Source: Candidatus Shapirobacteria bacterium
Lineage (GTDB): Bacteria; Patescibacteriota; Microgenomatia; 0-14-0-10-38-17
Direction: 5' to 3'
DNA: 64,000 nt
NCBI GenBank assembly: GCA_018052565.1
Contig: JAGPNC010000003.1
Coordinates: 587 to 64,586 of the forward strand
Made by a program: the position numbers and the translations under genes. Below the pieces are notes generated by a model that saw only the letters and a program-made list of their open reading frames with translations, was not told the origin of the DNA and ran no database searches. Positions 5,341-31,270 of the stretch are shown here, one piece after another (the first letter of the stretch is position 1; each line of letters opens with the position of its first letter).

Positions 5341-5370
5341 AATGGTAAGATAAATTTTTTAATGGCCGAG

Positions 5371-6333
5371 CTACCCCCTCTTCACTCTCTCTAAAGTCTC
5401 CAGATATTCCCTTGCGTCGCTAACGCTTTCCATCACAAACATCTCATTTTTATCCCCCCTTAACATTAAACACAATCCTCCCATCTGCCCTCCACCACCC
5501 ATGCCTCTCTTTGGCCCAAACTCATCATCAATTTTATAACACCCCCCAACGATTGCCAAGCGGCTCTTTCCGCCCCGCTGGAAAGAAAGATGCTCTCTGA
5601 CATGGTAATGCCCTAAATAGGAGACATCGGCATCGGGATAGACATGCTCTATAAATCTCTTACAGGCATTTGTCGGATTTAATTTACTCGCTCCCCAAAA
5701 TCTGTGGGTCATCGCTATCTTGTATTCCTGACTGCCATACTTAATCGTCAGCAAGCCCCCGCAGTTAAAGACAGGACAGGGCATATCTCTCAACCAAGTC
5801 CCCTCAAAACTTAACCCCCCTTTTTGGGAAAAGTCTTCGTGGTTGCCAAAGCTCATCGCTATCAGCTTTTCCTGTTTGGCTAATTTTCTCATTAACCCCT
5901 GAACAAGCAACGCCTGCTGTTCGGGAGTAATGCTATCTTCATAGACGCCAGCGGCTTGGGCGGTGTCAACCAAAAAGTTGTCGGCTAAGTCGCCGTTAGT
6001 GATAACATAAAGGTTCGGGGTTTTGCTGACAACCTCATAATCCCTCCAAAAGCCTCCATAATCGGTAAAAACGCTCCCAGCGTGTAAGTCGTTTAAAAGC
6101 CAAATGCCGATGGGAAGTTCGGGATGCTGGGGGTGGATTTCTACCGTTGCCTCTCTCTGGCCAACGGAATTCTCTTGGGCCAATCTTCTTGCCTCAGCTA
6201 AATGAGCCAAAAATCTTTCTTCGTTAAATGTCTGGGTTTTCTTATCTTCAAAAATAATTTCTTCTTGGGGTGGGACGACTATTCGTTTTACTTCCCTTCC
6301 TGATTTGTTGGCAATAATTATCTCTTTTCCCAT
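5371..6333 (-). CDS. calcineurin-like metallophosphoesterase
   Basis: GDLADNF, GNHE and GHYH metallophosphoesterase motifs. Confidence 0.7.
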   Translation of the reverse strand: MGKEIIIANKSGREVKRIVVPPQEEIIFEDKKTQTFNEERFLAHLAEARRLAQENSVGQREATVEIHPQHPELPIGIWLLNDLHAGSVFTDYGGFWRDYEVVSKTPNLYVITNGDLADNFLVDTAQAAGVYEDSITPEQQALLVQGLMRKLAKQEKLIAMSFGNHEDFSQKGGLSFEGTWLRDMPCPVFNCGGLLTIKYGSQEYKIAMTHRFWGASKLNPTNACKRFIEHVYPDADVSYLGHYHVREHLSFQRGGKSRLAIVGGCYKIDDEFGPKRGMGGGGQMGGLCLMLRGDKNEMFVMESVSDAREYLETLERVKRG

Positions 6334-8411: not shown

Positions 8412-8693
8412 TTAACGCCAAAATTCAGGGATTGAAATTGGCGCTCGCGGTAAAAGTTTCTGCAATAAGGCAATAACATCCAGGCCAATTTCCTGTAATA
8501 AAGGCAAAGAAGCGGGCACAAAAATTATCAAGAGAATAAGCCAAACAAAGCTTTTCTTCACCAATTCAATAAGAGATTTGAGAAGGAAAATGAAGACAAC
8601 CAAGGAAATAATTCCCCCCATCCAATCCGGGAAAACCGTTAAGAACTGCTGCCAAAGAGAATAAAGCTGGTCGAGAAAAAAGTTAAGGGACAT
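8412..8693 (-). CDS. small hydrophobic membrane protein
   Basis: A 93-aa ORF with two TM helices. Confidence 0.35.
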   Translation of the reverse strand: MSLNFFLDQLYSLWQQFLTVFPDWMGGIISLVVFIFLLKSLIELVKKSFVWLILLIIFVPASLPLLQEIGLDVIALLQKLLPRAPISIPEFWR

Positions 8694-8696
8694 GCC

Positions 8697-8830
8697 TTGA
8701 AAAGTTAAAAGTTAAAAATAAAATTCAAAATGCAAAAATCAAAGTTCAAAATTGCAAGTTAAAAATTGAAAGTTTTTACTCTACTTTTGAATTTTTTCAT
8801 TGTAAGTAATTTTGACTTTTGACTTTTTTA
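8697..8830. repeat. AT-rich palindromic k-mer spacer element (aaaagtYaaaagt family)
   Basis: Left arm aaaagttaaaagttaaaaat…caaaattgcaagttaaaaattgaaagt, mirrored by ttttgaatttt…ttttgacttttgactttt. Confidence 0.8.
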
Positions 8831-9026
8831 TTATACCCTCTTGCAAAAGATAATAAGATCTCTAATAATATATCATAAATATCCCTTAAGGTGCGGGCCA
8901 TTGTCATTTTGACGAGAAGGCCAAATTTTAAAAAACAGGGAAGACCCTAATTTTTGGGGAACGGTGCCGCCGCGGTGAAAGTCCGAAGACCTACCTTAAG
9001 GAAGCTGTCCCGGCCAGGACAAGATT

Positions 9027-10007
9027 ATGAATAAAGAAACTCTTGCTTGCGACCCTAACCGTTGGCAAAGCCAAACTGCCCCTTCCCAAATCGAAGCTGA
9101 GCTTGCCTTTTATGGCCTTGAGCACGGTCGCTCCCCCGAATATTTAGGCGCCAACGGTATTTTTGTTATCGGCTATTACTATCGCCTTTATCCCGAAAGA
9201 AATACCATTCACTCCTTTAACCCCCAAACGGGGAAAGAACTCAAAAAAGATGTTCGCGAGATGTTTGACGTGAGCACTCCGCGCGGCCGGCGGGAAAAGA
9301 AAGGCTTTGAAAAACTAACACGGCTTTTTTTTGAGGGAGATCCGGGAGATATTTTTGTTTGGCTAAGCCCGGCCGAAGAAAATCTTTATCCTTATCCTCG
9401 TCTTTATTTTGCCCAAAAGAAAGAGGCCAACCTTATCGAGGCATACGACTTAAACACCGATCTTAGTTTTGCCCAACTTAGAGAGCTTCTTTATCTTCTA
9501 AGCAAACAAGAAATTACGGCCCAAAATAGTGAGGAAATTCTTGGTTTCCCCCTACTGCTTCGGCAAGAAGGCCCCCAAATCATTTTTGAAAGTCTTAAGA
9601 AAGTCGGTGTCAAAGAACTCCATGGTGTCCCTCTTGATGTCGTGGAAAACCAATTCCGGGAAAAAGTTTGGGAAAAGCTTCTTTTGGAGAACCGTTCCCT
9701 TGCTTCTAAGGTTGCCACCGAAGTTTGGGAGAGCGTTGACCAGGAAAATTTTTATCAAGCAAGGCTGTGGGTGGCTTGGTACGAAGAAGCCATCAGAAAA
9801 CAGGGGGGATTCTTTGCTCCCCGATCAAGTTGCGGCGGCGCGTTAACCGCAAACTTTTCCCCAAAAGCGCCCTTTTATTACGGCCTGCCCATTTTCGGTT
9901 TGGAAATTACTCGTTCTCGAACTTGCCCTGTCTGCGGCTGGCCGCTTTTAAGCCCCGTTCCCGTTGGCGGTCATTGCCCCCATTGCGGCACCGAAAGGAA
10001 ATGTTAA
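9027..10007 (+). CDS. hypothetical protein with C-terminal CxxC…CxxC zinc-ribbon
   Basis: A clean 326-aa ORF with CPVCG…CPHCG at the C-terminus. Confidence 0.5.
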   Translation: MNKETLACDPNRWQSQTAPSQIEAELAFYGLEHGRSPEYLGANGIFVIGYYYRLYPERNTIHSFNPQTGKELKKDVREMFDVSTPRGRREKKGFEKLTRLFFEGDPGDIFVWLSPAEENLYPYPRLYFAQKKEANLIEAYDLNTDLSFAQLRELLYLLSKQEITAQNSEEILGFPLLLRQEGPQIIFESLKKVGVKELHGVPLDVVENQFREKVWEKLLLENRSLASKVATEVWESVDQENFYQARLWVAWYEEAIRKQGGFFAPRSSCGGALTANFSPKAPFYYGLPIFGLEITRSRTCPVCGWPLLSPVPVGGHCPHCGTERKC

Positions 10008-10016
10008 AATACCAAT

Positions 10017-10727
10017 ATGGGAAAGAAACCCTTCTTTTCGGTGATCATCCCCGCTTTTAATGAGGAAAAAACTATTGCCCAAACGCTGGAGTCTGTTTTA
10101 AAACAAGATTTTCCCCAAAACCAATACGAGATAATTGTGGTTAATAATAACTCCACCGACAAGACCGCTGCCATTGTTAAAAAATTCCCAAGTATTAAAT
10201 TAGTTAACGAACCAAAACGGGGGTATGTTTATGCCCTCACAAGAGGGGCGAAAGAAGCAAGGGGAGAGGTTCTCGCCTTTACGGACGCAGACACTGTCGT
10301 TCCTCCAGATTGGCTTAGCCGGTATCAGAAAGCCTACCAAAACCAAGGCGTGGTTTACGCCGGCGGCGGGGCTAATTTCCAGCCTAAATTTGGTTTTATC
10401 TTTCTGGTTCAGGAATTTCTTAATTTTTTTGGTTTTGTCACCAAAATTGCTTCGGGCTTTAACTTCTCTCTTCGCCGCTCTACCTACCAAAAAGTAGGCG
10501 GCTTTAACCCGCAAATTAATTTTCATGCCGACACCGATTTAGTCCTCCGCGCCAAAAAAGAAGGCAAGGCCGTTTTCCTTTCAAAAAATCGCGTCACTAC
10601 CTCCAGTCGTCATTACCGCGGCTTTAAAGGAATTGTCTATACGGTTAAGGGAATCGTCAACGCCATTTGGCTGTTCTTATTTAAAAAAACTCTTTTTTGG
10701 CATTTTGGCGAAGTCCGTTGTCTATAA
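10017..10727 (+). CDS. family 2 glycosyltransferase
   Basis: SVIIPAFNEE and DADT GT-A motifs. Confidence 0.75.
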   Translation: MGKKPFFSVIIPAFNEEKTIAQTLESVLKQDFPQNQYEIIVVNNNSTDKTAAIVKKFPSIKLVNEPKRGYVYALTRGAKEARGEVLAFTDADTVVPPDWLSRYQKAYQNQGVVYAGGGANFQPKFGFIFLVQEFLNFFGFVTKIASGFNFSLRRSTYQKVGGFNPQINFHADTDLVLRAKKEGKAVFLSKNRVTTSSRHYRGFKGIVYTVKGIVNAIWLFLFKKTLFWHFGEVRCL

Positions 10728-13300: not shown

Positions 13301-15436
13301 ATGAAACTCAAGCAAGGGAAAAAGAGTCTTCTGAAAAGAAGAGCCTCTTTTTTCTTACTTCTTTTAATAACGCTTTTCTTGGCGGGGGCTTTTTTGCCAG
13401 AGAAAAAAATTGTCTTTTCTTACGATTACCGCAACGATAGTTCCCATCCCGATCTTAATCTAAATATCAGAAGATACGAACCAATTGATGGCACCAAAGG
13501 GCTCATCGATTTTTCTCATCCCGTTGACGACAAAGCCCCTCAGTTCACTAGCATCTTAGAAAACACCCCTTCCCCGGCAATTATTTCCTTATATCAGGTT
13601 TATAACTGGAGCTGGGAAACAAACTCTCGGGGTAACCTTTGGAAAAAACCCAGCGACGCCCCCGATGACTTTGCCACCCTAATCGGGTTGGAGACCAGCA
13701 ACGGGCAAAACGTTTTGCTCCCGGTATCCGGATATGATATTGGCGGTGGCAACGGGGCAATGGTTATTTATGCAAGCGCCGATAGCGTTACCCTTAAGTA
13801 TACCTGCGAAGACACGATCAGCACCGGTTATACTGTTTATCTTTCCGGTTTTAATGTTAGGCCGGAAGTGCAAAGCCTCTATAATCAGTTGAATCAACAG
13901 GGAAGAGTTTCCCTCCCCGCAGCGCCCGGAGGATATGTCTTGGGAACTGCCACCGGCAATCCTCTTTTAGTCGCGGTAGTTGACACCGGCTCTTTTCTTG
14001 ATCCTCGCTGGAAACGAGATTGGTGGCACGGCGGCGCTTCTTCGGCAAATCAAAGCGCCCAGCTATCTTTTATTAATGTCTGCGAAGTTGGCCTTATCTT
14101 GAAAGGAGCTAGCGACATCTGCTCTCAATTCGAAGTAAGAAGAGAAAGAACAGACAATATTAATAGTCCGTCTCCCATTTCTGAGGGAGAGGAAATAAGC
14201 CAAAGCGTTCTTAACGACGAAATCACCACCATTAACGATTTAATGCCAGATTTTTATTACACTCAAAAGATTATGGCGCAAGTCCTAAAAGGCCTTCTCC
14301 CCCAAGAGCTGGCCGAAAACATCCTTCTTCCCTTTCGCGGCGATGTTTATTTTACCCATTACGCCTGGGGAGAAGAAGCGGGAAACGGCGTGAGTAGCAG
14401 TAACAGTCAAAACAAATATCCCAAAGAAAAAATCTCTCTCACTGCGGAATGGCCACGTCTCGCCGGCGCCGCTCGCGGTCTTCTTTCTTTCTTTCCTCCC
14501 GACAAAAATCCCAACGCCCCCTTAAGCGAATTTAAATTTCGCCTGGAGGATACCGGCTATATAGAAACCGACCCTTATTACTATTGCCGAAAGGGCCAGG
14601 AGACAAAAAAGAAAGTAATGTCTGCGCCGATCGAACAGGATCCGGAATTAAGGCTAAATAATATCTTGGTTAAGGTTATTACCGGTTTCCTTGATTCCCT
14701 AAATAATATTTATTCATATTTTAGAAAAGAGGAAATTAAATATGAAGTCTTTACTATGGGCAGATTGCCCGCCGGAGAAGAAACAACTAAAAACGTTGTT
14801 GATAACGCCAATAAATTCTTGCCCTCTCAAGTAATTGATTCGATAGAAAACTCTTTTAAAAGCGCCCATGATAATGCCAGAGCTATTAAAACCACCTTTA
14901 ATTATAATATCCGCGATGGCGGCGGTGGCGTTAAACCGTCTTCGTTTTTCCTCCTGAATAACTTAAGAGCCCACCACTGCCTTCAGCTTTGTAGCCTCGT
15001 TCCCCCCGATAAAGATGTTTCCTCTCTCGATCCTCTCTGCGTATCCTGCGACCCTAATTACTACCAAACCTATGAGCCGGTGCCTGCTCCTAGAAACATC
15101 CAGAAACTTTGTGTTTGGGATGAACAGGCAGGAGGATGTGATTATTACGACCCCAATGGCGCTCCCAGTTGCAACGGCGATCCTATTTGCGAGGGAGGAA
15201 AATGTAACCCCAATGAATATTTGCTCTCTCCAGATTATGCCAATAATGGCTGTTCTCCGCCATATGGCGAGGGCAACGAGTGCACTAGCGTCTGTCATGT
15301 AGAAACTTTCTCTCCTAATCTTGACGGCACCGGTTACGGTCCTTGTCACTACCTTAACTCTAATGTTTGTGTTCGCAACGATGCCGGAGGCGATTGTAGC
15401 AAGCTTTGCAACTGGGCCTGCTGCGCTTACCAATAA
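13301..15436 (+). CDS. large secreted protein with cysteine-rich C-terminal region (T4SS-associated; possible surface/adhesin component)
   Basis: N-terminal signal/TM segment. The C-terminal 180 aa hold more than 25 Cys, with a GGGG-V motif. Confidence 0.5.
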   Translation: MKLKQGKKSLLKRRASFFLLLLITLFLAGAFLPEKKIVFSYDYRNDSSHPDLNLNIRRYEPIDGTKGLIDFSHPVDDKAPQFTSILENTPSPAIISLYQVYNWSWETNSRGNLWKKPSDAPDDFATLIGLETSNGQNVLLPVSGYDIGGGNGAMVIYASADSVTLKYTCEDTISTGYTVYLSGFNVRPEVQSLYNQLNQQGRVSLPAAPGGYVLGTATGNPLLVAVVDTGSFLDPRWKRDWWHGGASSANQSAQLSFINVCEVGLILKGASDICSQFEVRRERTDNINSPSPISEGEEISQSVLNDEITTINDLMPDFYYTQKIMAQVLKGLLPQELAENILLPFRGDVYFTHYAWGEEAGNGVSSSNSQNKYPKEKISLTAEWPRLAGAARGLLSFFPPDKNPNAPLSEFKFRLEDTGYIETDPYYYCRKGQETKKKVMSAPIEQDPELRLNNILVKVITGFLDSLNNIYSYFRKEEIKYEVFTMGRLPAGEETTKNVVDNANKFLPSQVIDSIENSFKSAHDNARAIKTTFNYNIRDGGGGVKPSSFFLLNNLRAHHCLQLCSLVPPDKDVSSLDPLCVSCDPNYYQTYEPVPAPRNIQKLCVWDEQAGGCDYYDPNGAPSCNGDPICEGGKCNPNEYLLSPDYANNGCSPPYGEGNECTSVCHVETFSPNLDGTGYGPCHYLNSNVCVRNDAGGDCSKLCNWACCAYQ

Positions 15437-15475
15437 AACTTGCTAAAATTAAATTAATGTGTCAGAATAAAGAGG

Positions 15476-16849
15476 ATGAAGAAAAAAATCTTTGAACTAA
15501 TTACTGCCAGTCTTTTCTTCCTTCTGATAAGCGCATCGCCGGCAGAGGCTTTTGTTTCCAGCACGCCCCTAGGCGAAGAGCTTAAGAAGCAAGAATATCA
15601 GGCGGGGAGTTCTGTTTTCAATACCACCAAGGATACTATTGAATCTCTTAATATCCTTATTCTCGGTTCTGGCGACGAAGAGTTGGACCAAAAATTAGGC
15701 GCCAGCGCCATACAGACGACTAATAATCTTATCGCTTCTTTGTATGCCAATCCCCCCGCTTCTTCCGCTTACTACTTAGCTGATATTGGCCAAAGACTTA
15801 ACCTCACCCAGCCGGCTTACGCGCAAGGCGTCGGCTTCCCGGGCCTCACTCCTCTTTTGCCTCTCTGGAGAGCCGCCCGCAATGCCGCCTATATTTTTTT
15901 CATTTTTGTTTTTCTGGTCATCGGCTTTGCCATTATGTTCCGGGCCAAGATTAACCCCCAAACCGTGGTCACCATCCAAAGCGCCATCCCCAAAGCGGTG
16001 GTGGCCTTAGTGTTGGTTACCTTTTCCTACGCTATTGCCGGGCTAATGATTGACCTGATGTATCTGATAATTGGGTTAATGGGTAGCCTCCTTGCCAACA
16101 GCGGCTTATTGACGGGAAATAATTTTCTAAATGAATATGTGGGGATGAATTTTTTTGAGATGATGGGCAAGCTCTTGAAAGAAGGAGAGAGTTCTTGGTG
16201 GTCTATTGCTTTTGGCGTGTGGGAAGGAATGGGAACAGGGAAAGTCGGAAGTAAAATTATTGGAGCGATCACCGGCGCCATTCCCGCTCTTATTTTGGGA
16301 TTAGTTTTGCTTCTTCTAACTTTCAAAATTTTCTTCGCTCTGCTTATGGCTTATATCCAAATAATCATTGCCATTGTCATTGCCCCTTTCCAACTTATGC
16401 TTTCGGCTATCCCCGGCCAAAACACGCTTTCCTCCTGGATGCGTAATTTAACCCAAAATCTTCTCGCTTTTCCCGGAGTAATCTCCGCCCTTGCCCTAGG
16501 AGGAATTCTTGCTAATCTTTCCGGGGACAACCTTTGGATGCCTCCAATTTTAGGGAGCTCAATTAATGCCGATGTCGTTGCCGGTATTCTGTCCTTAGGC
16601 GTTCTCTTGCTAACCGCCAAGATTCCTGACATGATCAAGAGTATGTTTGAGAAAAAGCCCTTTGCCGCCGGCGCGGCAATAGGAGAAGCATTAAAGCCAG
16701 CTAAGACAATGGGGAAAACCGTAGGACTCTATGGAGTAGAAACAGGAGCACAATATATAGAAGGGGCCGCTGAGGCCGCACATAGAACAACTGGTTTAGA
16801 CCTTGGAGCAACGCGAGTAATTAGACGAGTAACCGGACTGAAAAAATAA
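15476..16849 (+). CDS. polytopic membrane protein, VirB6/TrbL-like candidate
   Basis: Signal peptide plus at least 6 TM helices. The position in the T4SS-like cluster is the main argument; the family assignment is by architecture only. Confidence 0.4.
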   Translation: MKKKIFELITASLFFLLISASPAEAFVSSTPLGEELKKQEYQAGSSVFNTTKDTIESLNILILGSGDEELDQKLGASAIQTTNNLIASLYANPPASSAYYLADIGQRLNLTQPAYAQGVGFPGLTPLLPLWRAARNAAYIFFIFVFLVIGFAIMFRAKINPQTVVTIQSAIPKAVVALVLVTFSYAIAGLMIDLMYLIIGLMGSLLANSGLLTGNNFLNEYVGMNFFEMMGKLLKEGESSWWSIAFGVWEGMGTGKVGSKIIGAITGAIPALILGLVLLLLTFKIFFALLMAYIQIIIAIVIAPFQLMLSAIPGQNTLSSWMRNLTQNLLAFPGVISALALGGILANLSGDNLWMPPILGSSINADVVAGILSLGVLLLTAKIPDMIKSMFEKKPFAAGAAIGEALKPAKTMGKTVGLYGVETGAQYIEGAAEAAHRTTGLDLGATRVIRRVTGLKK

Positions 16850-16914
16850 TCTTTTTCTTTCTATCTAAGACTTCAAAATCCCTACGTCTGATAATTTGAT
16901 ACCCTATATTCAAT

Positions 16915-18714
16915 TTATACTTGAAATCTTTCTTTTGAAGAAAAATACCTTACATTCTTGTCTCTTAGGGCCCTTATCAGCGTGCTCCTCTCTAAGAGTG
17001 GTAAATTGATGCTCGGTTTCCGTCTGTTTACATCAGCCACTCCCCCTGTGGCCGCATAAACCGCCCAAGACTTTAGCTTTTCATTTCTCTCAAGGTGTAA
17101 GCGTTTCAAAATATCTAGTAAAGGATCCGCCCATGCCTTGGCCGCACCAAACTTACCCAGTTCTATTGGCTTGCCAGGGTTAAAATATTCAAGTAGGCCA
17201 TTTGCTTTTCTAAGAAGAACAGTTAAATAATTAGTCTTCCACGGATCCGTGCTAACCTGTCTCCAGTCAATCTTTTGCCCCTGTTGTAATCTTAATAATA
17301 AAGTTGGGCCTTCTTCTCCTTCTCTATATTCTTCCCAAAAACTTCTCATCGAGGTGGTCGGATAACATTCGGGGACATAAATTAAAACTTGCCCGTTTTT
17401 AGGCTTATGTTTCCAAAATCTTGAAGGAGAGTCCGCCCCCTCAAACAAAAAGTCTCTTGAGTTCTTTTTCCCTGTTTTATTCTTTATCCTCTCGATCTGT
17501 GATAGCCCCCATTTACCAAAGGCTCCCCACTCTTGCTCTTTACTTGTCTTGTCCTCAAACCTTTCTTGGGGATGAAAAACACTTCGTAAATCATCAGAGC
17601 AAATCGCCGGCGCTAACTCTCCGTGCCTTTTCCTTAATCTCCTGTTGCCAAGACTGCTATACCTCGAATCGACTGATTCCACTAAATTTGAAACCCATAT
17701 CCAATTCCAAGCAATCGCGTCAGCGCTCTTTATTTTAATTCTCAAGGCTCTTAACTCCTCCTCTGCTTTTTTATCGCCTTCTTTAGCTTTTTCAAGTAAA
17801 AGTTTCTCTTGCTCTGCCGTAACGTGAAAAAATCCTCTTTTAAGGGTATACTGGAGGCTCCTTCTAAACATCTGAAATTCTCGACCGCTTGTACACTCAA
17901 CTAAAGATTTTTTTATTCCTCCTCCAATAGGTTCACCTGTTTCTTCATCCCATTCTTCAAATACCATCGTTTCGTCCAATATCGCATTGGCATACCATTC
18001 TAATCCCTCTCTTACTCCCTCAATATTATAAAGAATTTCCATCTGTTCTGTCGTAAGATCAATTAATTCCTGATTTTCAGCCAGCTTTCCAGGGTCTGCG
18101 GAAAAAGCATTTTTATAAAAAGCTGCCCTTGCTAGTCGCCAGCGGGTATCCCACTCTCGACGCCTCTCGGAAGAAAGTCTCGAATAAAAACCAGGCTCCA
18201 TGTTAGGCATAAAGCGGGTATAAAAATCCTGTTGCCATTCTACATCAACCCAGCGTTCTTCTTCTTCTCCCGGGGGTAACCTTCTCAAAATTTCAGCCAG
18301 CGCTTCTTGCGTCTCGCCCCTCTCCACTCCTCCCGCAACGCCTCTCGCTATCTCCCTGTCTGCTGCTTCTCTCAACAGTCTCTCAATTTCCCCGGCAAGC
18401 TCGCCGGCCAAAACCGACCATTCGCCCTCGGGAACTTTCTTATCAAGGTACCAACCATCGCCCTCCTTCAGAAGATTTCCTAAACCTTCTGGGGTTTGCA
18501 TGCGAGGTTGCAAAGCCAGCTGGACCAAACGTAGAAGCTTGTCATTCCCAATCGGCGCCTTTTGGAGAATTTTCCCTTTCTTGTCCTTTTTAGGCTCCAC
18601 CAAACTTCGCAACCTTTCCTCAAAAGGAGGCTCTGCTGGCCGCTCTGGCGATACTACTCTCTGCTGTTGCCCTGTCTCTGATGGTGGTGGCATACCTGGC
18701 TCCCCTTCAGTCAT
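16915..18714 (-). CDS. hypothetical protein (opposite-strand insertion in T4SS-like locus)
   Basis: A 599-aa ORF with long, clean, Trp/Glu/Arg-rich sequence. I recognise no motif. Confidence 0.5.
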   Translation of the reverse strand: MTEGEPGMPPPSETGQQQRVVSPERPAEPPFEERLRSLVEPKKDKKGKILQKAPIGNDKLLRLVQLALQPRMQTPEGLGNLLKEGDGWYLDKKVPEGEWSVLAGELAGEIERLLREAADREIARGVAGGVERGETQEALAEILRRLPPGEEEERWVDVEWQQDFYTRFMPNMEPGFYSRLSSERRREWDTRWRLARAAFYKNAFSADPGKLAENQELIDLTTEQMEILYNIEGVREGLEWYANAILDETMVFEEWDEETGEPIGGGIKKSLVECTSGREFQMFRRSLQYTLKRGFFHVTAEQEKLLLEKAKEGDKKAEEELRALRIKIKSADAIAWNWIWVSNLVESVDSRYSSLGNRRLRKRHGELAPAICSDDLRSVFHPQERFEDKTSKEQEWGAFGKWGLSQIERIKNKTGKKNSRDFLFEGADSPSRFWKHKPKNGQVLIYVPECYPTTSMRSFWEEYREGEEGPTLLLRLQQGQKIDWRQVSTDPWKTNYLTVLLRKANGLLEYFNPGKPIELGKFGAAKAWADPLLDILKRLHLERNEKLKSWAVYAATGGVADVNRRKPSINLPLLERSTLIRALRDKNVRYFSSKERFQV

Positions 18715-18721
18715 ATTTGGC

Positions 18722-19576
18722 TTAATTATAACAAACTTGGCCCGATTTTAGCAAAAAATCTATCACTCGTCTCCCCTCGTCTTCTTTAAGAGCATAATAC
18801 GCTTGCGCCACTTTTTTTTCTAATAATGCCTTCTCTCCCCATTTCTCTTCAGAAAAACAAAACAAGTCTACACCGTCTCTTGGGTTATGACGAGGATAAA
18901 AATTATCGTATGAATGCCTAGGTTCAAAGTCATCTGTCACTTTTACTAGTTTAACTGCCTTCTCTGGCCATAAAGAGCAAAACAAAAGAGTTTTGTTTTC
19001 GTACCAAATAGAAGCCTCATAATAACCGCCTTTTCTCCCTGAATTATGGTAGCAACCTAACTCTACAGAACAACTATTCACCTTAAAATCTTTTGGACTA
19101 ATAAGCGAAAGGGTTTCTATCGTTCCATGCAAACTACCAATAGAATATTCCAGAAAACCATTATAATTTGGCTCTGTTTTTTTATAATCATTATCTTCGC
19201 CAAAATTAAAAAATTCGTTGCCTTCAACAAACTCTTCACCTCTAAAATAAACGTTTCTCCTCTCCCTCTCCCTTATCTCACTAATGCCATACTTGCCTAC
19301 CTTTCCGCGCCTAATAGGGCAAAGATAAGAAACGGCCGCATTAATCTCAACTTCATCTTCTATTCCCGCCGCTTCTTTTAATTCCATTAAAACCTCTATT
19401 GCCCCTGATTGCTGAAGAACTTGAAGATGAGGGCGAACTAATGCCCGTGCTTCTTCGTTTAAGAAGCCAAGCCTTTCTTTAATCTTGCCAATAATTACTA
19501 ATTTCTCTTGGTTTATTTTTTCTTGCTTTGCCTGTTCCTCGGCTCCTAATCGTTCGAGCTCTTTTCTTATACCCAT
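18722..19576 (-). CDS. hypothetical protein (co-oriented with 16915-18714)
   Basis: A 284-aa ORF, 7 nt upstream of the previous one. No recognisable motif. Confidence 0.5.
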   Translation of the reverse strand: MGIRKELERLGAEEQAKQEKINQEKLVIIGKIKERLGFLNEEARALVRPHLQVLQQSGAIEVLMELKEAAGIEDEVEINAAVSYLCPIRRGKVGKYGISEIRERERRNVYFRGEEFVEGNEFFNFGEDNDYKKTEPNYNGFLEYSIGSLHGTIETLSLISPKDFKVNSCSVELGCYHNSGRKGGYYEASIWYENKTLLFCSLWPEKAVKLVKVTDDFEPRHSYDNFYPRHNPRDGVDLFCFSEEKWGEKALLEKKVAQAYYALKEDEGRRVIDFLLKSGQVCYN

Positions 19577-19869
19577 TTTTTATTCAAATAATTAGTTAAA
19601 AATAAAAAATGTTTAATTAAAGTTTGGCCGATAAGGGTTTTCTCTCATAATTATAAGACATTATAATTGTTTATTCCGTCTTTGTCAACGGCTCTTCCGC
19701 AACTCCCGACGTCGATTAGCTTCGAACCTCAGGGTTTTTCAGCACCTAAAATACTATAAGCACTCCATTATCCCGCCTTATGCGTGATCTCTCGGAAAGA
19801 GACTATGTAGTAATGGAGTAAGTTTAGATAGATTCTAAACCTCATGCCAGAGGGGCGCAGAATAGGCTG

Positions 19870-20235
19870 GTTAAAATTTTCTTATTCACTTTTGACTTTT
19901 TATTTGTACTTTTGACTTTTAAATTTTAACTTTTAACTTTTCTTCTCAATATTGCCCCTTAATGCTACACCTTAAGGGTGGGTTCCTGCTTGCCCCCTTG
20001 GCATTCCAGACTATCAAGCTCCGCTCTTGCGCGGCAAGACGATTTATTGTAAGCTAGAATTGTTTAAATTCAAAAGTTAAAATTCAAAATGCAAAATTAC
20101 AATTCAAAATCCAAAATTTTTAATTTTAACTTGCAATTTTTCCGCCAGAGGCGCAGGCCAGAGGTCTGTCGGCCTTGGGCAGAGACCCGCCTTGGGCGGG
20201 AACTTTTGACTTTTAACTTTTGACTTTTAACTATT
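19870..20235. repeat. composite spacer: AT-rich arms + GC-rich nested-hairpin core (core at 20141-20200)
   Basis: The core is tccgccagaggcgcaggccagaggtctgtcggccttgggcagagacccgccttgggcggg, flanked by acttttgacttttaacttttgactttt arms. Confidence 0.8.
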
Positions 20236-20238
20236 TCC

Positions 20239-21108
20239 GTGGAACAGCATCCCATTCCCCAACACATTTCGTCTTACGAGTTTCGCCTTATTGGTGAAAT
20301 GACCCTGGGCCAGTTTGCCCGCGTCGCCGGCGGAGTAATTGTAGCGCTTATTTTTTATGCCCTCCCCCTGCCCGGCTTTATTGGGTGGTTTTTAGTTCTC
20401 CTTTCGGCCGGCTTAGGAATCGCCTTCGCTTTCCTCCCCGTTGAGGGTCGACCACTGGAAGTTTGGCTTCTTGCTTTTCTTCGCTCAATTTATTCCCCCA
20501 CGCAATATGTTTGGCGAAAAGTGGTTGCCTCTTTTGATTTCCAAACCCAAACCCCCTCTCCCGAAGAAACCGTACCAGCAATTTCTGCCTCAAAAACCCT
20601 GACACCCCAAGAGCTGGCCCTTCTGCGCACTTTCGGACAGAAGGATACTGAGTTTTATAGCGAGGAAGAAATTAAGAAAGCCCAGGCGTTTCTCGCTCTT
20701 TATCAGCAGCCTGCCAACGCGACGCCTTCTCCTTCTTCGTTGACTGACATTAAAAAAGAAGAAAAAGCCAAAGAAGCCCGCTTCGAGGAAGGCCTTCCCT
20801 TCCCTGCTCCCCCAGATGAACCAAACATCATTGTCGGCATGGTTATCGATAAAAACGGCAAAATCGTGGAAGGAGCCATTATTGAGATAAAGAGCAGGGA
20901 GGGGGAAACCGTCCGGGCAATGAGGAGCAACAAATTAGGACAGTTTCGGACAATTTCTCCCCTGGTAAACGGCGAATACCGAATTTCCTGCGAGAAAGAG
21001 GGGCTTAATTTTGATATAATGAAAATTAAACTTGAGGGAAAAATTCTCCCGCCGGTAGAGATAAGAGAAAAGGGCCCTAAAACAACAAATAATACCCAAG
21101 AGGAATAG
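20239..21108 (+). CDS. PrgI/VirB3-like T4SS membrane protein with C-terminal carboxypeptidase-regulatory-like beta domain
   Basis: The N-terminus (SSYEFRLIGEMTLGQFARVAGG) matches the PrgI-family pattern, followed by two TM segments. GTG start. It sits two genes upstream of the VirB4-like gene. Confidence 0.5.
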   Translation: MEQHPIPQHISSYEFRLIGEMTLGQFARVAGGVIVALIFYALPLPGFIGWFLVLLSAGLGIAFAFLPVEGRPLEVWLLAFLRSIYSPTQYVWRKVVASFDFQTQTPSPEETVPAISASKTLTPQELALLRTFGQKDTEFYSEEEIKKAQAFLALYQQPANATPSPSSLTDIKKEEKAKEARFEEGLPFPAPPDEPNIIVGMVIDKNGKIVEGAIIEIKSREGETVRAMRSNKLGQFRTISPLVNGEYRISCEKEGLNFDIMKIKLEGKILPPVEIREKGPKTTNNTQEE

Positions 21109-21119
21109 TATATTTAATA

Positions 21120-21275
21120 AAAAAAGGGGCTAAAATAACTAAAATTCAAAGTTCAAAATGCAAAATGAAAAATGAAAAATTAAAATGCAAAAATTATTAA
21201 AAAAAGAAAATTCTTTTTACACTTTACATTTTATTTTATTTTGGACTTTTAAATTTTAATTTTTAACTTTTTTCC
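21120..21275. repeat. AT-rich palindromic spacer element
   Basis: aaaattcaaagttcaaaatgcaaaatgaaaaatg… mirrored by ttttggacttttaaattttaatttttaactttt. Confidence 0.75.
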
Positions 21276-22052
21276 GTGCCTGACCAAAAAAACCCGCCCG
21301 TCCGCGCCTCTACCCAAGAAGCCATACCTGTCGAGGACATTCGCGACAATTTGGTTATTTTAAAAGACGGCTCGGCGGCGATGATTCTCCAGATTAGCGC
21401 CCTAAATTTTGACCTCCTTTCCCAAAGAGAGCAAGAGGCGCTGATTTTTGCCTATGGCAGCCTTCTTAATTCCCTTAATTTTTCGGTGCAGATTTTTATT
21501 CGCTCCCAAAAAAAAGATATCACCGGTTATCTCTCGCTTTTGGACAAAGCCAAGGACAACCAAACCAATCCTCTTCTTAAAAAATTAATCACCGATTATC
21601 AAAAATTTATCAAAGAAGTGGTTACCAAAACAGAGATTTTGGATAAAAAATTTTATCTGGTTATTCCTTTTTCCTCTCTTGAGTTAGGGTTTGGAGCAGC
21701 GGCAAAAAGCATCACCAAAAGCCTGCCGCTTTTCAAAAAAACCACTCCTTCTCAAAAATTGGACCTAATTGAAGTTTCCCAAAAAGCCCAAACTTCTCTT
21801 CTCCCTAAGCGAGACCATTTGATCCGACTTTTCTCCCGCCTCGGCCTTTCTGCCCGCCAATTAACCACCAACGAACTTATTTATCTTTTCTTCCGGATTT
21901 ATAACCCCAATGCCAAAGGAATCGAGCCGGCTCTGACCAAAGAGTATCTCTCTCCTCTAACTACCAGCCTCTTGATCCCACCGAAAATTGAAGAAGGACA
22001 AGCATCGCCAGATCAGGGGAAACAAAAAGAACAAGCAGTTCGTAATACGTAG
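21276..22052 (+). CDS. hypothetical T4SS-associated protein
   Basis: 258-aa ORF with a GTG start inside the conserved TTTTTCCGTGCCTGACC leader. Confidence 0.45.
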   Translation: MPDQKNPPVRASTQEAIPVEDIRDNLVILKDGSAAMILQISALNFDLLSQREQEALIFAYGSLLNSLNFSVQIFIRSQKKDITGYLSLLDKAKDNQTNPLLKKLITDYQKFIKEVVTKTEILDKKFYLVIPFSSLELGFGAAAKSITKSLPLFKKTTPSQKLDLIEVSQKAQTSLLPKRDHLIRLFSRLGLSARQLTTNELIYLFFRIYNPNAKGIEPALTKEYLSPLTTSLLIPPKIEEGQASPDQGKQKEQAVRNT

Positions 22053-22054
22053 GC

Positions 22055-22270
22055 TGTAATCTCAAATCTTAAAACGCAAATGTCAAATCTAAAACGCAAA
22101 ACGCAAACCTGCCTTGCCGGCAGGCAGGATTCAGGATTAAAAAATGCAAAAATCAAAGATCAAAAATCAAAATGAAAATGTAAAATGCAAAAAGAATTTT
22201 CTTTGGATCTTAACAATTTTTGAATTTTAATCTTTCATTTTGACTTTTAACTTTTGACTTTTAATTTTTT
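22055..22270. repeat. composite spacer with GC hairpin core (cctgccttgccggcagg at 22108-22135)
   Basis: k-mer arms (aatctcaaatct…, …ttttgacttttaacttttgactttt) around the GC hairpin. Confidence 0.75.
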
Positions 22271-22274
22271 TTCC

Positions 22275-24128
22275 ATGCCTAATCCTATCAACCAACTATT
22301 AGAAAAAATTAAACCTCCTAAAAAAGAAAGCCCGGCAAAAGAGGCCGCCGCCGCAAAAGAAAGCGGCGAAACTTTCGGCGCCGGCGTGCCCACCATTAAA
22401 GATATCATCGCCCCCTCGGCCATCGAGGTTGACTTTTCCTATCTTAAAATTGACAATAAATATTTGCGAACTTTTTTTGTAGCTGGCTATCCCCGTTTCG
22501 TTTCCGCTAACTGGCTCTCTCCTTTAATTAATTTTGACCACACCTTGGATATTTCTATGTTTATTTATCCGGTAGAAATAAAAGGAACTATGGACGATCT
22601 ACGCCGGAAAATTGCCGAAATGGAAGCGGAAATTTCCACCGATATCCAGCGAGGGCGAGTTGTTGACCCCTCCACCCAGGCTAAATTGGAAGACGCCTTG
22701 GCGCTTCAGGAAGAATTAGCCAAAGGAACCGAGCATTTCTTCCAGTTCGGCCTTTATATCACTATTCCCGCCGATTCCCTCCAGGAGTTGGAAGAGGTAA
22801 GCCGTGAAGTTGAGGCCACCCTGGGGTCGCTTTTAATCATTGCCAAAACAGCGAGCCTGCAAATGGAAGAAGGTTTTAAAACCACTCTCCCTATTGGCAT
22901 TGATTTTTTGAACATCAGCCGTAATATGGATACCACCTCGCTGGCGACCACTTTCCCCTTTACTTCTTCGGAGCTCACGGCCAACGAAGGAATTTTATAT
23001 GGCGTTAATCAACATAATGGTTCTTTGGTTATTTTTGATCGCTTCAATCTGGAAAATTCTAATGCCGTTATTTTTGGCAAGTCCGGCTCAGGAAAAAGCT
23101 ATCTGGTAAAACTTGAAGCCCTCCGTTCTTTAATGATGGGAACAGAATTAATTATTATTGACCCGGAAGAGGAATACCGCCAGCTGAGCGAGGCCGTTGG
23201 AGGAGAATATATTAAGTTTGGCTTTGGCTCACGGGCAAAAATTAACCCCTTTGACCTTCCCAGCCAGCAATTATCATTCCCGGGTGAAAAAACAGAAAAT
23301 GAACTTGGCTTCAAGCTTCTTTCCCTCCACTCTCTCTTAAAAATAATGTTAGGGGAAATGAGCGCTAATGAAGAGGCCATCCTTGACCGGGCGCTGGTGG
23401 CCACTTATAAAAGCAAGGGAATTACCCCCGATCCTGTTACTTACGAACAGGAGCCGCCGCTTTTAGAAGATCTTTACAAAACTCTTCTGGGAATGGAGAG
23501 CAAAGAAGGTCAACTTTTAGCCACCCGTTTGGAAAAATTTGTTAAGGGTTCGCTGACGGGGATTTTTGACCAGCATTCTAATGTTAATCTAAAAAATCCG
23601 TTTACGGTTTTTTCCCTAAAAGACGTTGAGGGTGACTTAAGGCCGGTGGTGATGTTTATTATCCTTGATTACATTTGGACCAAAGTAAAGGCCGAGATTA
23701 AAAAAAGAATCGTCATTGTTGACGAAGCGTGGTATTTAATGCGTTATCCTGATTCGGCCCAATTTTTGGAATCGATCGCCAAAAGAGCGCGTAAATATTA
23801 TTTAGGCCTTTCCACCATCACCCAAGATGTTCCCGACTTTCTCTCCTCGCCCTATGGAGAATCAATTATCACCAACTCTTCTGTGCAAATTTTAATGAAA
23901 CAGCATCCGGCCGCCATCGACCGCTTAGGGGAGGTCTTTTATCTCTCCGAAGGAGAGAAAAATTTTCTTTTATCCGCCAATATCGGCGAGGGGCTCTTCT
24001 TTGCCGGGGACAATCATGTGGCGATTAAGGTAATTTCCTCCCCCCAAGAGCATAAGTTAGTCGGTTCCAGTCCGAAAGAAAAAACAGTCGCGGTGGCCAA
24101 AGAAGCCAAAGAAACGGAAGAAAAATAA
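22275..24128 (+). CDS. VirB4/TraE/PrgJ-family type IV secretion ATPase
   Basis: Walker A GKSGSGKS and Walker B VIVDEAWY. The N-terminal region is typical of PrgJ/TrsE. I set the start at the ATG at 22275; the ORF-track start (22254) lies inside the repeat. Confidence 0.8.
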   Translation: MPNPINQLLEKIKPPKKESPAKEAAAAKESGETFGAGVPTIKDIIAPSAIEVDFSYLKIDNKYLRTFFVAGYPRFVSANWLSPLINFDHTLDISMFIYPVEIKGTMDDLRRKIAEMEAEISTDIQRGRVVDPSTQAKLEDALALQEELAKGTEHFFQFGLYITIPADSLQELEEVSREVEATLGSLLIIAKTASLQMEEGFKTTLPIGIDFLNISRNMDTTSLATTFPFTSSELTANEGILYGVNQHNGSLVIFDRFNLENSNAVIFGKSGSGKSYLVKLEALRSLMMGTELIIIDPEEEYRQLSEAVGGEYIKFGFGSRAKINPFDLPSQQLSFPGEKTENELGFKLLSLHSLLKIMLGEMSANEEAILDRALVATYKSKGITPDPVTYEQEPPLLEDLYKTLLGMESKEGQLLATRLEKFVKGSLTGIFDQHSNVNLKNPFTVFSLKDVEGDLRPVVMFIILDYIWTKVKAEIKKRIVIVDEAWYLMRYPDSAQFLESIAKRARKYYLGLSTITQDVPDFLSSPYGESIITNSSVQILMKQHPAAIDRLGEVFYLSEGEKNFLLSANIGEGLFFAGDNHVAIKVISSPQEHKLVGSSPKEKTVAVAKEAKETEEK

Positions 24129-24129
24129 T

Positions 24130-24355
24130 ACCTAATTCAAAAGTCAAAAGTCAAAATTCAAAATTACAATTAAAAAGTTAAAAGTTTTTCGCTTTACTTT
24201 TAACTTTTAGCTTTTGACTTTTTCCGCCAGAGGCGCACCCGCCTTGGGCGGGATCAGCCTTGGGCAGAGACCCGCCTCGGGTGGGAACTTTTGACTTTTA
24301 ATTTTTAATTATTACATTGCGTTCTAACTTTTGACTTTTAACTTTTGACTTTTTC
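24130..24355. repeat. composite spacer with GC core (24223-24285)
   Basis: Core tccgccagaggcgcacccgccttgggcgggatcagccttgggcagagacccgcctcgggtggg. Confidence 0.8.
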
Positions 24356-24358
24356 CCC

Positions 24359-27300
24359 ATGCCCGACCAAGACAAATTAATTCTTTCCCGCCAAACGGCA
24401 GAACTCTTGCTTCAGGGAATCGCCTTTTTTAAAGAAAACCCGACCGCCAAAAAATGGAAAAACCTAGATAAAGACCTTTTTATTTTTCTTTGCCGCGAAC
24501 TTTGCCAACTCCCCCTTGAGGAAGAAGAAAATTTTGATGAATATCTTGCTCGTGCCGAAGAACTTTTAAAAAGAATCATCGGCGAAGAACTTACTGCCCC
24601 CTCCCTGCCCCAAAACTTGGAAGAACTAGTTGAGGCCTGGGAAAGCTTTGCTACCCAAAAAGATGCCCAAGCCCCTCCTTCTCCAAGAATTAACCTGCCA
24701 ACAGTCGAGGATTGGATTAAAGCTTTAAAAGAAAAAAGAGTTGAAGAAGAAATTGCTCCCCGGGTGAGAAAGGCTCTTCAAACCACCCTCCCCCACCTTT
24801 CCCAGAAAGACCAGGCCAGCCTTGGGAAACAAATTAGCCAGGAAATTGCCAAATCCCCCTTCTTTGTCCTTCCCCAAGAAGAAAAAGAGGCAGTGGTCCA
24901 AAGAGCAGTAGAAAAAAGCCTTGGGGAAAAGCAAATTGTCCTTGGCGAAGAGCAAAAGCAAGCCTTAGCAAAAGCAATGGTAACCCCTTCTCTTCCTCGA
25001 AAAGAGCCGAAGCCAAAAGAAACGATCACCCCTCCTGTTTTTAAAAAATTCCAAGAACAGATTGAACAAGTTTTAAGAACATCCTTAGAGACAACAGGAA
25101 AAATTGACGAAGAAACCCTTGCTGAGTTGAGTCCTTTAATAAGCGGGGCAGTGGCTTCGAATCTCCCTCTTCTATCCCAAGGCGAATTAGAAGCCCTCAG
25201 CCTAGCCGATAAGAGCAAAATTGCCGAGGGAACAACCACCGCCGCCTTAGGAACGATTGGTAAAGCTTTAGTGGCCAAAGGCATTAGTCTCTCCCCCAGC
25301 CAAACCGCCACCCTTTTAGATCAACTCACCATCACCGCCATCTCTAACTTAGAAAGTTTAGCGCCAGTTCTTCCGGAAAACCGCCTTCCCCAGGAAAAAA
25401 CCCCGGAGACGGAAGGAACCGCCACGCCAATTTTAACCTTTTTGCTCCATCCCAAGGAAACCGCCACCCTTATTCTTAACCCCCAAACAAGAAGAAGCCT
25501 TGAAGCTCTCGACAGAGACCCCTCTCTTCCTTTTAGTCTTGTTTTGGAAGGAGAGGAAACCTCTCGGGGAGAACAAATTAAAAATATTTTTCTCCTAAGG
25601 GGGATTAATTTTCAAAGCATTAATTTAGCCGCCCCCCTTGAAGAAGAAACCCAGGCTTTAGTATTGGCGGCCAAGGGAATCACCAGCGCCGATATTAGTT
25701 CCGCCATCAAAGCCGCCCGGGAGGAAAATTGGCCGGCCGAAGAAATAAGGAGGCTTGAGGAAATTTTTAGCCGTCAACTAAAATTTGAAAGAGATTTTCC
25801 TGGATTAACCCAACGGTTCTTTCGTTTCCGAAAAGCAAAAGAAATCATCTCGGGCCAAAAAAATGATCAAAGGCTACCTTCCCGCCCCTATCTTAAAATT
25901 AAAAGCCAAACCAGCTTTGACACTGCCAGATGGAAAGCCCTGAAAATCATTAATAGTTTTTTGGAGAAAATTGGCCTTGTGGAAAAAGAAACCACTGTTT
26001 CGGGAAAAATTATCCAATCCTCCAAAATCTGGTATTATCTCCAAAAAGCCTTCCAGCCGGTAGCTTCTTTTTGGCAAAAAACAAACATCGGGAAAACCAT
26101 TGCGGATTGGCTTTCAAGACAAACTTATCATTTTTGGCAAGACGCCTTGGGGCAAATAAGAGGATTTAGCCAGGCGGGAGTTAAGAAAGCGGTTCAGGAA
26201 GGAACCAAAAAAGGAGTCACTAAAGCAATCACCTGGCTTTCTACCAAATTGGCGGCCACCAAACTGGGAGCTGCTTTAGGCTCAATTGCCCCGGGAATAG
26301 GCAATGCGATAGGGGCAGTGGCCGGCTTTTTGGTTGATTTAGGAATATCTTTCTTTAAAAAGGGCGGCGAATTTTTAGAAAAACTTACCGGCGGCCAAAC
26401 CGAGGCGGAACAAAAGCTTAAAGTCGCCCTAGGACCATTTTCCTTCTTGGTTTCTCCTTTGGCAATTATTGTTATTGGTGCCGCCATTATCCCTCTTTTG
26501 CTTGTTTTTCACGATTCTGCCAACACCCAAAGTCTTTTTTTTGTTTCAGAGGACGGAGGGGGAGGAGTTCTTCCTCCTTCCTCACGCCTTATTTTGCCTT
26601 CTCTAGAATTGGCTGAGATAATCAAAAGGGCAGCTAAAGATATTTGTGTTCCGGAAGCCCTTCTTCTGGCAATCTCCAGAACTGAGGCCGCAAGGGCGTG
26701 GGGGTATTCCTCTGAAGAAGTCAAACTATTTTCTACCCCTAATTGGTGGGAAACACCCGGAGCTCCTATCTGTCGCGGCCTTTGTTATAACACTTGCAAC
26801 CCGGGAGAATGCAGCCAGTGGGACCCGGATTGCGCTTGGACTAATTATGGCGGCATCAGTCAAGAAGCGGATGTGCGGGGAGTTATGCAGTTTGAATTGA
26901 ACACTTTTAACGGTTATCGCAACGAGCTTTTGGGCATTTTAGGAAGAGAACCTCATCGCTGTCTTATTCCCGATTCCATCTATGCAGCAGCATTAAAAAT
27001 AAAAGCCGATAGCGGCACCGACAACACCCAATGCGATGATTGGTCAGACGAAATCGTCCGCAAAGTAGCCAAGGCCTACTGCGGCTCTTGTGATTCTCCT
27101 AATTGTCCCAATTATTGCGACATTGTCCTTTACTACTATCATGATTATCAAAATTCCCTAGATATTATCACTAATCCCTCCAGCAACCCCAACGGCCTAA
27201 TAGCTGAAAAAATCGCTGTTATTATGGCCAGATGCAACCATGATCCCGATGGCTATGGTTTCATTAACGCTTCGACCCAAAACGCCGCCATTGGTTGTTT

Positions 27301-31269: not shown

Positions 31270-31270
31270 T
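31190..31270. repeat. AT-rich palindromic spacer element (upstream of dnaA start)
   Basis: gaaattcaaaattcaaaagtcaaaatttaaaattgcaagttaaaagttaaaagttttt, mirrored by ttttggattttgacttttaa. Confidence 0.75.

Follow-up and report, generated by a model that had tools for sequence, protein, structure and literature searches.

The stretch of DNA analysed here (the window; 64,000 nucleotides) derives from Candidatus Shapirobacteria (Microgenomatia) and holds a chromosomal, dnaN-proximal and origin-proximal type IV secretion system (T4SS) of the MPF-FATA-like kind described for Patescibacteria. Within this locus two open reading frames (ORFs) lie 7 nt apart on the minus strand, one encoding a soluble protein of 599 aa (16915-18714) and the other a protein of 284 aa (18722-19576), and both products are annotated as hypothetical in public records (MBP8591032.1 and MBP8591033.1, respectively). 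An original prediction had described the two genes as an inserted opposite-strand cassette, flanked by complex repeats, in a 17 kb plus-strand cluster. Our ORF calls agree with its gene boundaries and spacing, and the two genes are the only sizeable minus-strand ORFs in 9027-29724, but the plus-strand cluster extends over ~20.7 kb and not 17 kb. The large gene possibly starts at Met8, where its homologs and one public gene call (P0001, 592 aa) begin, in which case the gap to the 284-aa gene would be 28 nt.

The 599-aa gene is the native occupant of a fixed slot in such loci, and not inserted cargo. Sequence and profile searches recovered its family in 32 clusters at 90% identity and 213 clusters at 50% identity, and in every locus with enough flanking sequence the homolog had prgI on one side and the virB6-like gene on the other and was transcribed against both. 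This arrangement was kept in close relatives (L001, L007, L009, L010 and L026), in mid-distance relatives (L003, L005, L012, L014 and L015), in L018, whose homolog (P0032) is 31% identical, and in L019 and L031, whose members (P0092 and P0111) are recognised by profile only. Slot and orientation are fixed in at least 10 distinct loci with VirB4 proteins 58-95% identical, the homologs ranging from 57% identity to profile-only similarity. The deep loci were found with the window's own type of protein (type A) as query and carry an ascertainment bias: the family lives in the slot, and that the slot always holds the family would be a separate claim. In T4SS loci of the Microgenomatia type this slot usually holds a type A gene, and the T4SS locus of Southlakia (Saccharimonadia) has no homolog there, so that the transposon sequencing (Tn-seq) and genetic data for that organism are not applicable to the 599-aa family.

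The composition of the large gene is equally native. No deviation in G+C content (GC) or codon usage from its locus neighbours was found (GC 0.448; range of the neighbours 0.43-0.48), and the 284-aa gene is GC-poorer than its surroundings (0.379), so that neither gene fits the earlier impression of a slightly GC-richer pair; the compositional check speaks against insertion of the large gene, and the small gene deviates toward low and not toward high GC. Since related T4SS loci have the large gene in the same place, the two genes are not a cassette inserted as a unit. The idea of inserted cargo survives for the small gene only, which is clade-restricted and compositionally deviant, and which is missing from most loci with the large gene; homologs of the large gene lie in the slot wherever the flank is long enough to tell.

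The first ~115 residues of the 599-aa protein recur on otherwise unrelated proteins in the window's own clade. In an AlphaFold2 (AF2) model built from 31 sequences (predicted local distance difference test score, pLDDT, 88; predicted template modelling score, pTM, 0.75) this N-terminal module (N-module; residues ~1-117, 18364-18714 on the minus strand, ending ...VPEGEWSVLAGELAGEIERLLRE) is a small helical domain with a pLDDT of ~90 over residues ~25-120. On the recurring proteins the module ends ...VPEDEWSVLAGE-x-EERERLLRE, and this EERERLLRE end coincides with the onset of a disordered linker in the model. When the family profile was aligned by hhalign with the two other types of protein, B and C, the match was confined to columns 8-114 (probability 98.6-98.8%), and in an alignment of A, B and C identity collapses past residue ~115. 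Close strains carry the N-module on no fewer than three bodies, A, B and C, that are unrelated to one another.

Type A consists of the module and the core of the 599-aa protein, type B has ~680 aa (L006, L008, L017, L020 and L021, the last an intact ortholog at 86% identity and an independent sample), and type C is a single ORF of 669 aa in L027 and L028 and a split copy in L009. The slot holds A alone in the window, L001, L007, L010 and L026, B alone in all five type B loci, C alone in L027, and C followed by A as a tandem in L009, L023 and L024; since some slots contain only B or only C, the A core is dispensable. Every N-module gene with usable context sits in the T4SS slot, and genes of all three types end directly against the convergent virB6-like gene, L001 alone having a downstream gene (538 aa). 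The N-module itself exists as two or more allelic types whose distribution does not follow that of the core, as exemplified by L007, in which the module is 33% and the core 70% identical to those of the window. In L009 (571-2529, GCA_029549325.1) the type C gene upstream of type A is broken into ORFs of 193 and 421 aa, either because a displaced copy is decaying or because the assembly is faulty; the two ORFs had been considered as separate genes and were rejected as such. Stand-alone short N-module genes were likewise discarded, as P0160 and the ORF next to it are frameshifted pieces of a type B gene (contig coverage 0.64x) and P0080 is a contig-end fragment. A motif that looked similar by eye had raised the possibility that bodies B and C are far-diverged homologs of the A core, for which hhalign with close and distant family profiles gave no support.

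The family diverges fast and in a mosaic fashion. Comparing the window with its close relative L001, we found identities of 95% for VirB4, 91% for TrsD, 83% for PrgI, 86% for DnaN and 81% for the GT2 glycosyltransferase, and of 46% for the 599-aa homolog, 51% for the VirB6-like protein and 26% for a 711-aa protein of the same cluster. The 599-aa homologs are ~43-46% identical to the window's protein at a VirB4 identity of 95% and of 67-77% alike, and this flat identity against a varying VirB4 background indicates that deep alleles are shuffled among close genomes. Identity along the protein is a mosaic, as seen in 50-residue blocks of L001 against L009 (74, 98, 86, 94, 56, 44, 50, 64, 84, 74, 36, 50 and 37%). 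L006 and L007 are 100% identical over 1,035 bp, a stretch that takes in the spacer and the entire small gene and reaches ~17 nt into the large gene, and are unrelated from there on, with a sharp junction at codon ~6 at the 5' end of the large gene; the virB6-like gene has been exchanged together with the large gene between these two loci. Breakpoints lie at the gene's 5' end and within the linker (residues ~118-142, 18289-18363, minus strand), where the sequences of A, B and C part. The linker is modelled with a pLDDT below 50 at residues 120-142, its length varies across the family with large indels in the alignment, and it is the likely site of module exchange.

On the DNA level, ~13.3-19.6 kb of the window (13301-19576, the genes for the 711-aa surface protein, the VirB6-like protein and the 599- and 284-aa proteins) is patchy or unalignable in comparisons with L001, L006, L007, L009 and L010, even where VirB4 is 95% identical. 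The flanks are conserved, with 80-86% DNA identity over prgI-trsD-virB4 and 74-76% on the pilin and glycosyltransferase side (74-86% overall). The hypervariable block looks like a host-specificity island. We regard the descriptive account given so far, of slot, architecture, divergence and three bodies, as very well founded.

The 599-aa protein has no transmembrane (TM) segment and no signal peptide (maximum Kyte-Doolittle score 0.62) and is soluble. Its type A core (residues ~143-599, ~455 aa; 16915-18288, minus strand) is alpha-rich, modelled with a pLDDT above 90, and contains 58 invariant residues; the family alignment shows the motifs RWVDVE, WDxRWxLARAA, ADAxAWN..SNLVESxDSRY, HPQExFE, WGxFGxWG, PECYP and NLKxW. 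That homology clues are missing, as predicted, was borne out: the protein has no match in Pfam, NCBIfam, PADLOC or PHROG, 41 distant family members scanned have no Pfam domain, a profile search of PDB returned no relative, and Foldseek of the AF2 model against PDB and BFVD, which define the scope of the fold comparison, gave no fold match (best E = 1.9 and 0.07, respectively). Bodies B and C have no Pfam match and no PDB sequence match. No NTPase motif and no helix-turn-helix (HTH), HUH, Rep_trans or nuclease signature was found in the 599-aa protein, and tblastn detected no relatives of either protein on annotated plasmids and phages. The prediction had named homology to core T4SS components as an outcome that would overturn it, and none was found for either protein by sequence or fold (VirB1-B11, VirD4 and Prg/Trs/Tcp).

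The 284-aa gene is a separate, clade-restricted acquisition in a divergent intergenic hotspot. It encodes a soluble acidic protein (pI 5.6, no TM segment) and has the lowest GC (0.379) and third-position GC (GC3, 0.31) in the locus. Relatives occur in only four other clusters; in L006, L007 and L008 they take up the corresponding place, upstream of an A or a B body, and most loci with the large gene lack the small one. Wherever found, it occupies the T4SS slot, co-oriented with and directly upstream of an N-module gene. Its AF2 model (pLDDT 72.6) comprises a long, highly conserved N-terminal helix and an alpha/beta domain, the N-terminal 80 residues being highly conserved in sequence, and there is no relative in PDB by fold or sequence and no match in Pfam, NCBIfam, PADLOC or PHROG. 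A comparison with the accessory genes found at other loci revealed no kinship. As the gene stands upstream of both A and B bodies, its product is not a body-specific immunity or chaperone protein; any role it may have for the large protein would be that of a chaperone or adaptor acting on the shared N-module.

The C-terminal ~17 residues of the 284-aa protein (18722-18775; …FLLKSGQVCYN) run into sequence that is intergenic in L006-L008 (spacer of 98 nt; L006 5050-5147). This extension, which we compared with the L006 spacer and with the read-through in L017, is modelled with a pLDDT below 50 and is what brings the gap to the large gene down to 7 nt. The tight coupling of the two genes may be recent or incidental. 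A consensus sigma-70 promoter probably drives the 284-aa gene and the large gene as one transcript: a pattern scan located TTGACA-17-TATAAT, a 12/12 consensus match, on the minus strand at 19660-19688, ~85 nt upstream of the 284-aa start, which is a candidate promoter of the 284/599-aa operon.

This motif lies in the divergent intergenic region between the 284-aa gene and prgI (19577-20238), which agrees well with the ~660 bp of hairpin-rich noncoding DNA originally reported: it measures 662 bp, contains no credible ORF, small ORFs included, and is built from AT-rich arms and GC hairpins. The region is mostly not conserved and cannot be aligned to the L006 spacer. Its only conserved part, 20015-20096, is 82% identical to L001 9864-9945, the remaining spacer being not conserved; it includes TTGCGC-17-TAAGCT (20027-20055, plus strand), a weak consensus match that is also present in the L006/L008 spacer and that may be a promoter or operator of the prgI-trsD-virB4 operon.

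In relatives the corresponding gap on the prgI side is ~100-340 bp, or is filled by unrelated genes. It is empty in L003, L005 and L010, and holds a Polbeta-NTase and NTase_sub_bind pair in L014 (4661-5361), MNT and HepT in L030 (200-1037), AbiEii and DUF6922 (4494-5406) as well as a zinc-ribbon protein in L015, a 23S-rRNA-IVS protein in L012 and a J-domain-like membrane protein in L019. With two independent MNT/HEPN-type pairs (L014 and L030) and an AbiEii/DUF6922 pair (L015), toxin-antitoxin (TA) modules occur in this gap in several lineages, and the gap is therefore a recurrent integration site. The predicted insertion site is accordingly a real hotspot, into which the small gene falls, but not the site of a two-gene cassette.

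Between the promoter-like motif and the prgI start lies an inverted-repeat element in which AT-heptamer arms surround GC hairpins (20060-20238, plus strand; repeat families D1-D4 and I4/I9), with a fold energy of -59.8 kcal/mol (z = -7.0). The unique part of the spacer has weak fold z-scores (-0.8 and -2.4 for the two strands), and a search of the spacer against Rfam for non-coding RNA gave no match above noise. Dimers of the heptamer TTTTGAC/TTTTAAC were matched 62 times in the window against 2.75 expected, and 56 of the 62 fall in non-coding DNA (~14% of the window), spread over 15 intergenic gaps. The repeat beside the 284-aa gene is one copy of a genome-wide intergenic element. Flanking repeats had been taken as a mark of insertion; they lie on one side only, and their interpretation as insertion scars was rejected because the element is genome-wide. 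The heptamer-containing gaps include 8693-9027, 21108-21276, 22052-22254, 24128-24359, 30842-31270, 36150-36414, 39841-39912, 41174-41817 and 44609-45069. The units and their complement often build long AT-rich inverted arms around GC hairpins; as the unit contains a TTGAC (-35-like) core, candidate roles are a terminator, a promoter array or an element resembling a miniature inverted-repeat transposable element (MITE). Several of the tmRNA and tRNA genes of the window are bordered by heptamer repeats (39385-39749, 41364-41438, 44463-44552 and 44696-44770 on the minus strand and 49113-49189 on the plus strand; a tmRNA and the four tRNAs Arg-CCG, Ser-CGA, Arg-GCG and Asn-GTT).

The T4SS cluster around the two genes comprises, on one side, the GT2 glycosyltransferase, a VirB2-like pilin array (PF18895, 47 bits, plus four more pilin-sized ORFs with two TM segments), the 711-aa protein, which has a hydrophobic segment at its N-terminus, and the VirB6-like protein. 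The latter (15476-16849, plus strand) is a polytopic membrane protein with ~7 hydrophobic segments, is encoded convergently with the 599-aa gene within the hypervariable block, has only weak matches to the NCBIfam conjugal transfer models MMCAP2_0566 and Mbov_0396, and is 29-73% identical in relatives. Past the 599/284-aa pair follows the conserved operon prgI/virB3 (20239-21108), trsD (21276-22052) and virB4 (22254-24128; operon 20239-24128, plus strand), divergent from the pair, whose products are 83-95% identical in close relatives; then come a 1127-aa protein and, on the other strand, dnaN (29736-30842, minus strand, 86% identical to an L001 gene bearing DNA_pol3_beta domains). PrgI matches PF12666 (29.7 bits, cut-off 27), VirB4 is of the CD1110/FATA type (NF045971, 395 bits, cut-off 325), and TrsD, a separate ORF upstream of VirB4, matches NF041427 with E = 7.6e-9, under the cut-off of that model. 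TrsD and VirB4 are two ORFs in all relatives examined. An alternative genetic code behind a 'split VirB4' was rejected, as the two ORFs are separated by an intergenic spacer full of repeats, and a separate TrsD next to VirB4 is the architecture described for Patescibacteria (PMC12102498). No relaxase or type IV coupling protein (T4CP) model was matched among the cluster ORFs scanned, the scan covering part of the window's ORFs; in Patescibacteria the T4CP is usually not encoded near virB4 (PMC12102498).

A few further observations were made in and around these loci. Directly upstream of the pilin array, 9027-10727 encodes a 326-aa function-unassigned protein and the GT2 glycosyltransferase (69-82% identity in L001, L002 and L010), and their location beside the pilins hints at a T4SS-linked glycosylation of pilin or surface. 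In L005 (4438-8094, GCA_964530385.1) VirB4 is 1218 aa long and contains an intein with a LAGLIDADG endonuclease (PF14890, PF14528). The contigs L012-L016 carry a Patescibacterial T4SS locus, yet were deposited as 'uncultured Gammaproteobacteria bacterium' (several third-party annotation assemblies) or 'Candidatus Woesearchaeota archaeon', probably through mislabelling or misbinning. At the end of the window GC drops to 0.28-0.35 (last 6 kb, 58-64 kb).

The Patescibacterial T4SS is essential for epibiotic growth in one genetically tractable species (PMC10633639, PMC12857230), whose system has neither relaxase nor coupling protein, and its substrate is an open question in the field (PMC10633639, PMC12102498, PMC12857230). 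A portable N-module, a flexible linker and interchangeable bodies, encoded in the recombining, fast-evolving half of a T4SS locus with unknown substrate, suggest to us that the 599-aa family is polymorphic T4SS cargo or effector, a reading to which we assign a probability of roughly 0.35-0.4. The conserved cytoplasmic side of the machine (VirB4, TrsD or PrgI, or else a loop of VirB6) would then recognise the protein by its N-module as a handle, and the body would enter the host cell or act on it, with host-driven diversifying selection giving rise to deep, shuffled alleles. In its strongest form, which we consider possible but doubtful, the N-module proteins A, B and C would be the first identified Patescibacterial T4SS substrates, with a new N-terminal delivery domain and host-targeted bodies of new fold whose shuffling tracks host range. 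An effector pair had been among the possibilities raised at the outset; the large gene has gained support for such a role through its three bodies and its fast mosaic divergence, but the small gene is not its consistent partner.

Several points weigh against the family being cargo. No T4SS signal is recognisable in the proteins, and known T4SS signals are C-terminal and not N-terminal. The last 25 residues carry a net charge of +1.16 in the family against +0.65 in window ORFs, so that a positively charged C-terminal T4SS signal cannot be distinguished from background (Mann-Whitney p = 0.18). Searches of Pfam, PDB sequences and PHROGs, and of PADLOC for A, revealed no toxin or enzyme fold in any of the three bodies, and no consistent cognate immunity gene was found downstream of the A, B and C variants across loci. 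Hypervariability alone is no mark of cargo, as true machine parts (the VirB6-like protein and pilins) are also hypervariable, and the persistence of the A core in one slot over a very wide range, with its 58 invariant residues, also fits a machine-associated or enzymatic role. The evidence has its own weak spots: synteny in the deep lineages comes from the biased type A query, the junctions come from short metagenome contigs of uncultivated hosts, and such contigs may be chimeric, and Saccharimonadia loci are without the gene, so that genetic data obtained there do not bear on it.

The main rival holds that the 599-aa protein is a cytoplasmic accessory subunit of the machine, the N-module docking on the ATPase/VirB3 platform or the VirB6 loops. 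It would be a substrate receptor or gate that takes over the function of the absent coupling protein, and its evolution would be tied to that of the hypervariable surface and VirB6-like proteins. The locus position fixed over the whole range of the family, the solubility of the protein, its invariant core residues, the usual absence of a T4CP gene near virB4 (PMC12102498) and the joint exchange with the adjacent virB6-like gene between L006 and L007 all fit this role. A stoichiometric subunit would, however, sit oddly with tandems of C and A and with a core that is swapped for the unrelated B or C in sister strains; moreover, there is neither an NTPase motif nor similarity to any T4SS subunit, and the gene is absent from the functional, essential T4SS loci of Saccharimonadia, and we consider the subunit reading unlikely. 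Still less probable is a divergent regulator or a novel DNA-processing, relaxase-like T4SS enzyme. In favour are the divergent orientation from the prgI-virB4 operon, the invariant Asp, Glu, His, Tyr, Ser and Cys residues, which suggest catalysis, and the published remark that relaxases of a very different kind may await discovery (PMC12102498). Against this stand the missing HTH, HUH, Rep_trans or nuclease signature and fold match, the size of 600 aa, which is large for a regulator, and the swapping with unrelated bodies and rapid mosaic divergence, which are unexpected for either role.

The toxin/immunity or anti-phage pair proposed for the two genes is by far the least probable account and is largely refuted by synteny. 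Opposite strand, tight spacing and missing annotation had suggested it, and the neighbouring gap does attract TA modules in relatives, but the large gene keeps its place throughout the family and is native in composition, most loci with the large gene have no copy of the small one, no consistent partner gene exists, PADLOC has no match and no relatives reside on plasmids or phages. A narrower view, in which the 284-aa gene alone is foreign, does not compete over the large gene and is compatible with the cargo reading. The small gene would be T4SS-unrelated hotspot cargo (defence, addiction or selfish) that borrows the transcription unit of the large gene. This is in line with its confinement to five clusters, its low GC and GC3, its pairing with body A or body B, the non-conserved adjoining spacer and the MNT/HEPN-type, AbiEii/DUF6922, 23S-IVS and other unrelated genes in the same gap of relatives. 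We nevertheless regard it as open to doubt, given that the gene is known from this slot only and always co-oriented directly upstream of an N-module gene, that its N-terminal 80 residues are highly conserved, and that no PADLOC, Pfam or PHROG match points to such cargo.

To the extent that the family is cargo or, alternatively, a specificity adaptor, it supplies concrete candidates for the open question of what the Patescibacterial T4SS transports. A recombining block of surface protein, virB6-like gene and 599-aa gene between conserved flanks is the expected look of a host-range determinant. If the protein is instead an adaptor of the machine, it would still be a lineage-specific part of the T4SS that has not been described before, and one for which Foldseek finds no similar fold in PDB. 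The T4SS locus itself has already been described, and in the literature searched we did not find the divergent ~600-aa family, the N-module or the three-body polymorphism.

Compared with the Patescibacterial T4SS described by Quinonero-Coronel et al. 2025 (PMC12102498) and Wang et al. 2023 (PMC10633639), the window shares the pilin array, the VirB6-like protein, PrgI/VirB3, the separate TrsD, VirB4, a large cell-wall-hydrolase-like protein that is part of the set described, and the adjacency to dnaN; the divergent ~600-aa gene is unnamed in those studies and would fall among the unannotated genes. Unlike the window, the Southlakia locus, the only one studied genetically, lacks the ~600-aa gene.

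Chaperone-effector pairs of T4SS such as VirE1-VirE2 and CagF-CagA resemble the arrangement found here in that the gene of a small acidic protein directly precedes that of a large soluble T4SS-associated protein and probably shares its transcript, but the 284-aa protein is far larger than VirE1 and is absent from most large-gene loci. The X-Tfe proteins of Xanthomonas and Stenotrophomonas are effectors of an interbacterial, bacteria-killing T4SS, each with an adjacent immunity gene, whose C-terminal XVIPCD is read by VirD4. Like these, the window family would be modular effectors that combine one common recognition domain with differing activity domains; in contrast to them, its module is N-terminal, no T4CP was matched among the cluster ORFs scanned, and there is no immunity partner.

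A conserved N-terminal module, a linker and alternative unrelated C-terminal bodies are also the hallmark of LXG effectors of the type VII secretion system, of Rhs and contact-dependent inhibition (CDI) proteins, and of MIX/FIX effectors of the type VI secretion system. The window family differs from such polymorphic systems in its machine, a T4SS, in the three bodies seen so far, and in having neither sequence or fold similarity to LXG or a known trafficking domain, nor a recognisable toxin domain, nor a downstream cognate immunity gene. What it has in common with them is one N-module on unrelated bodies, genes placed inside the secretion-system cluster, tandem or displaced copies, recombination at the module boundary and, in some strains, a small helical protein encoded just upstream.

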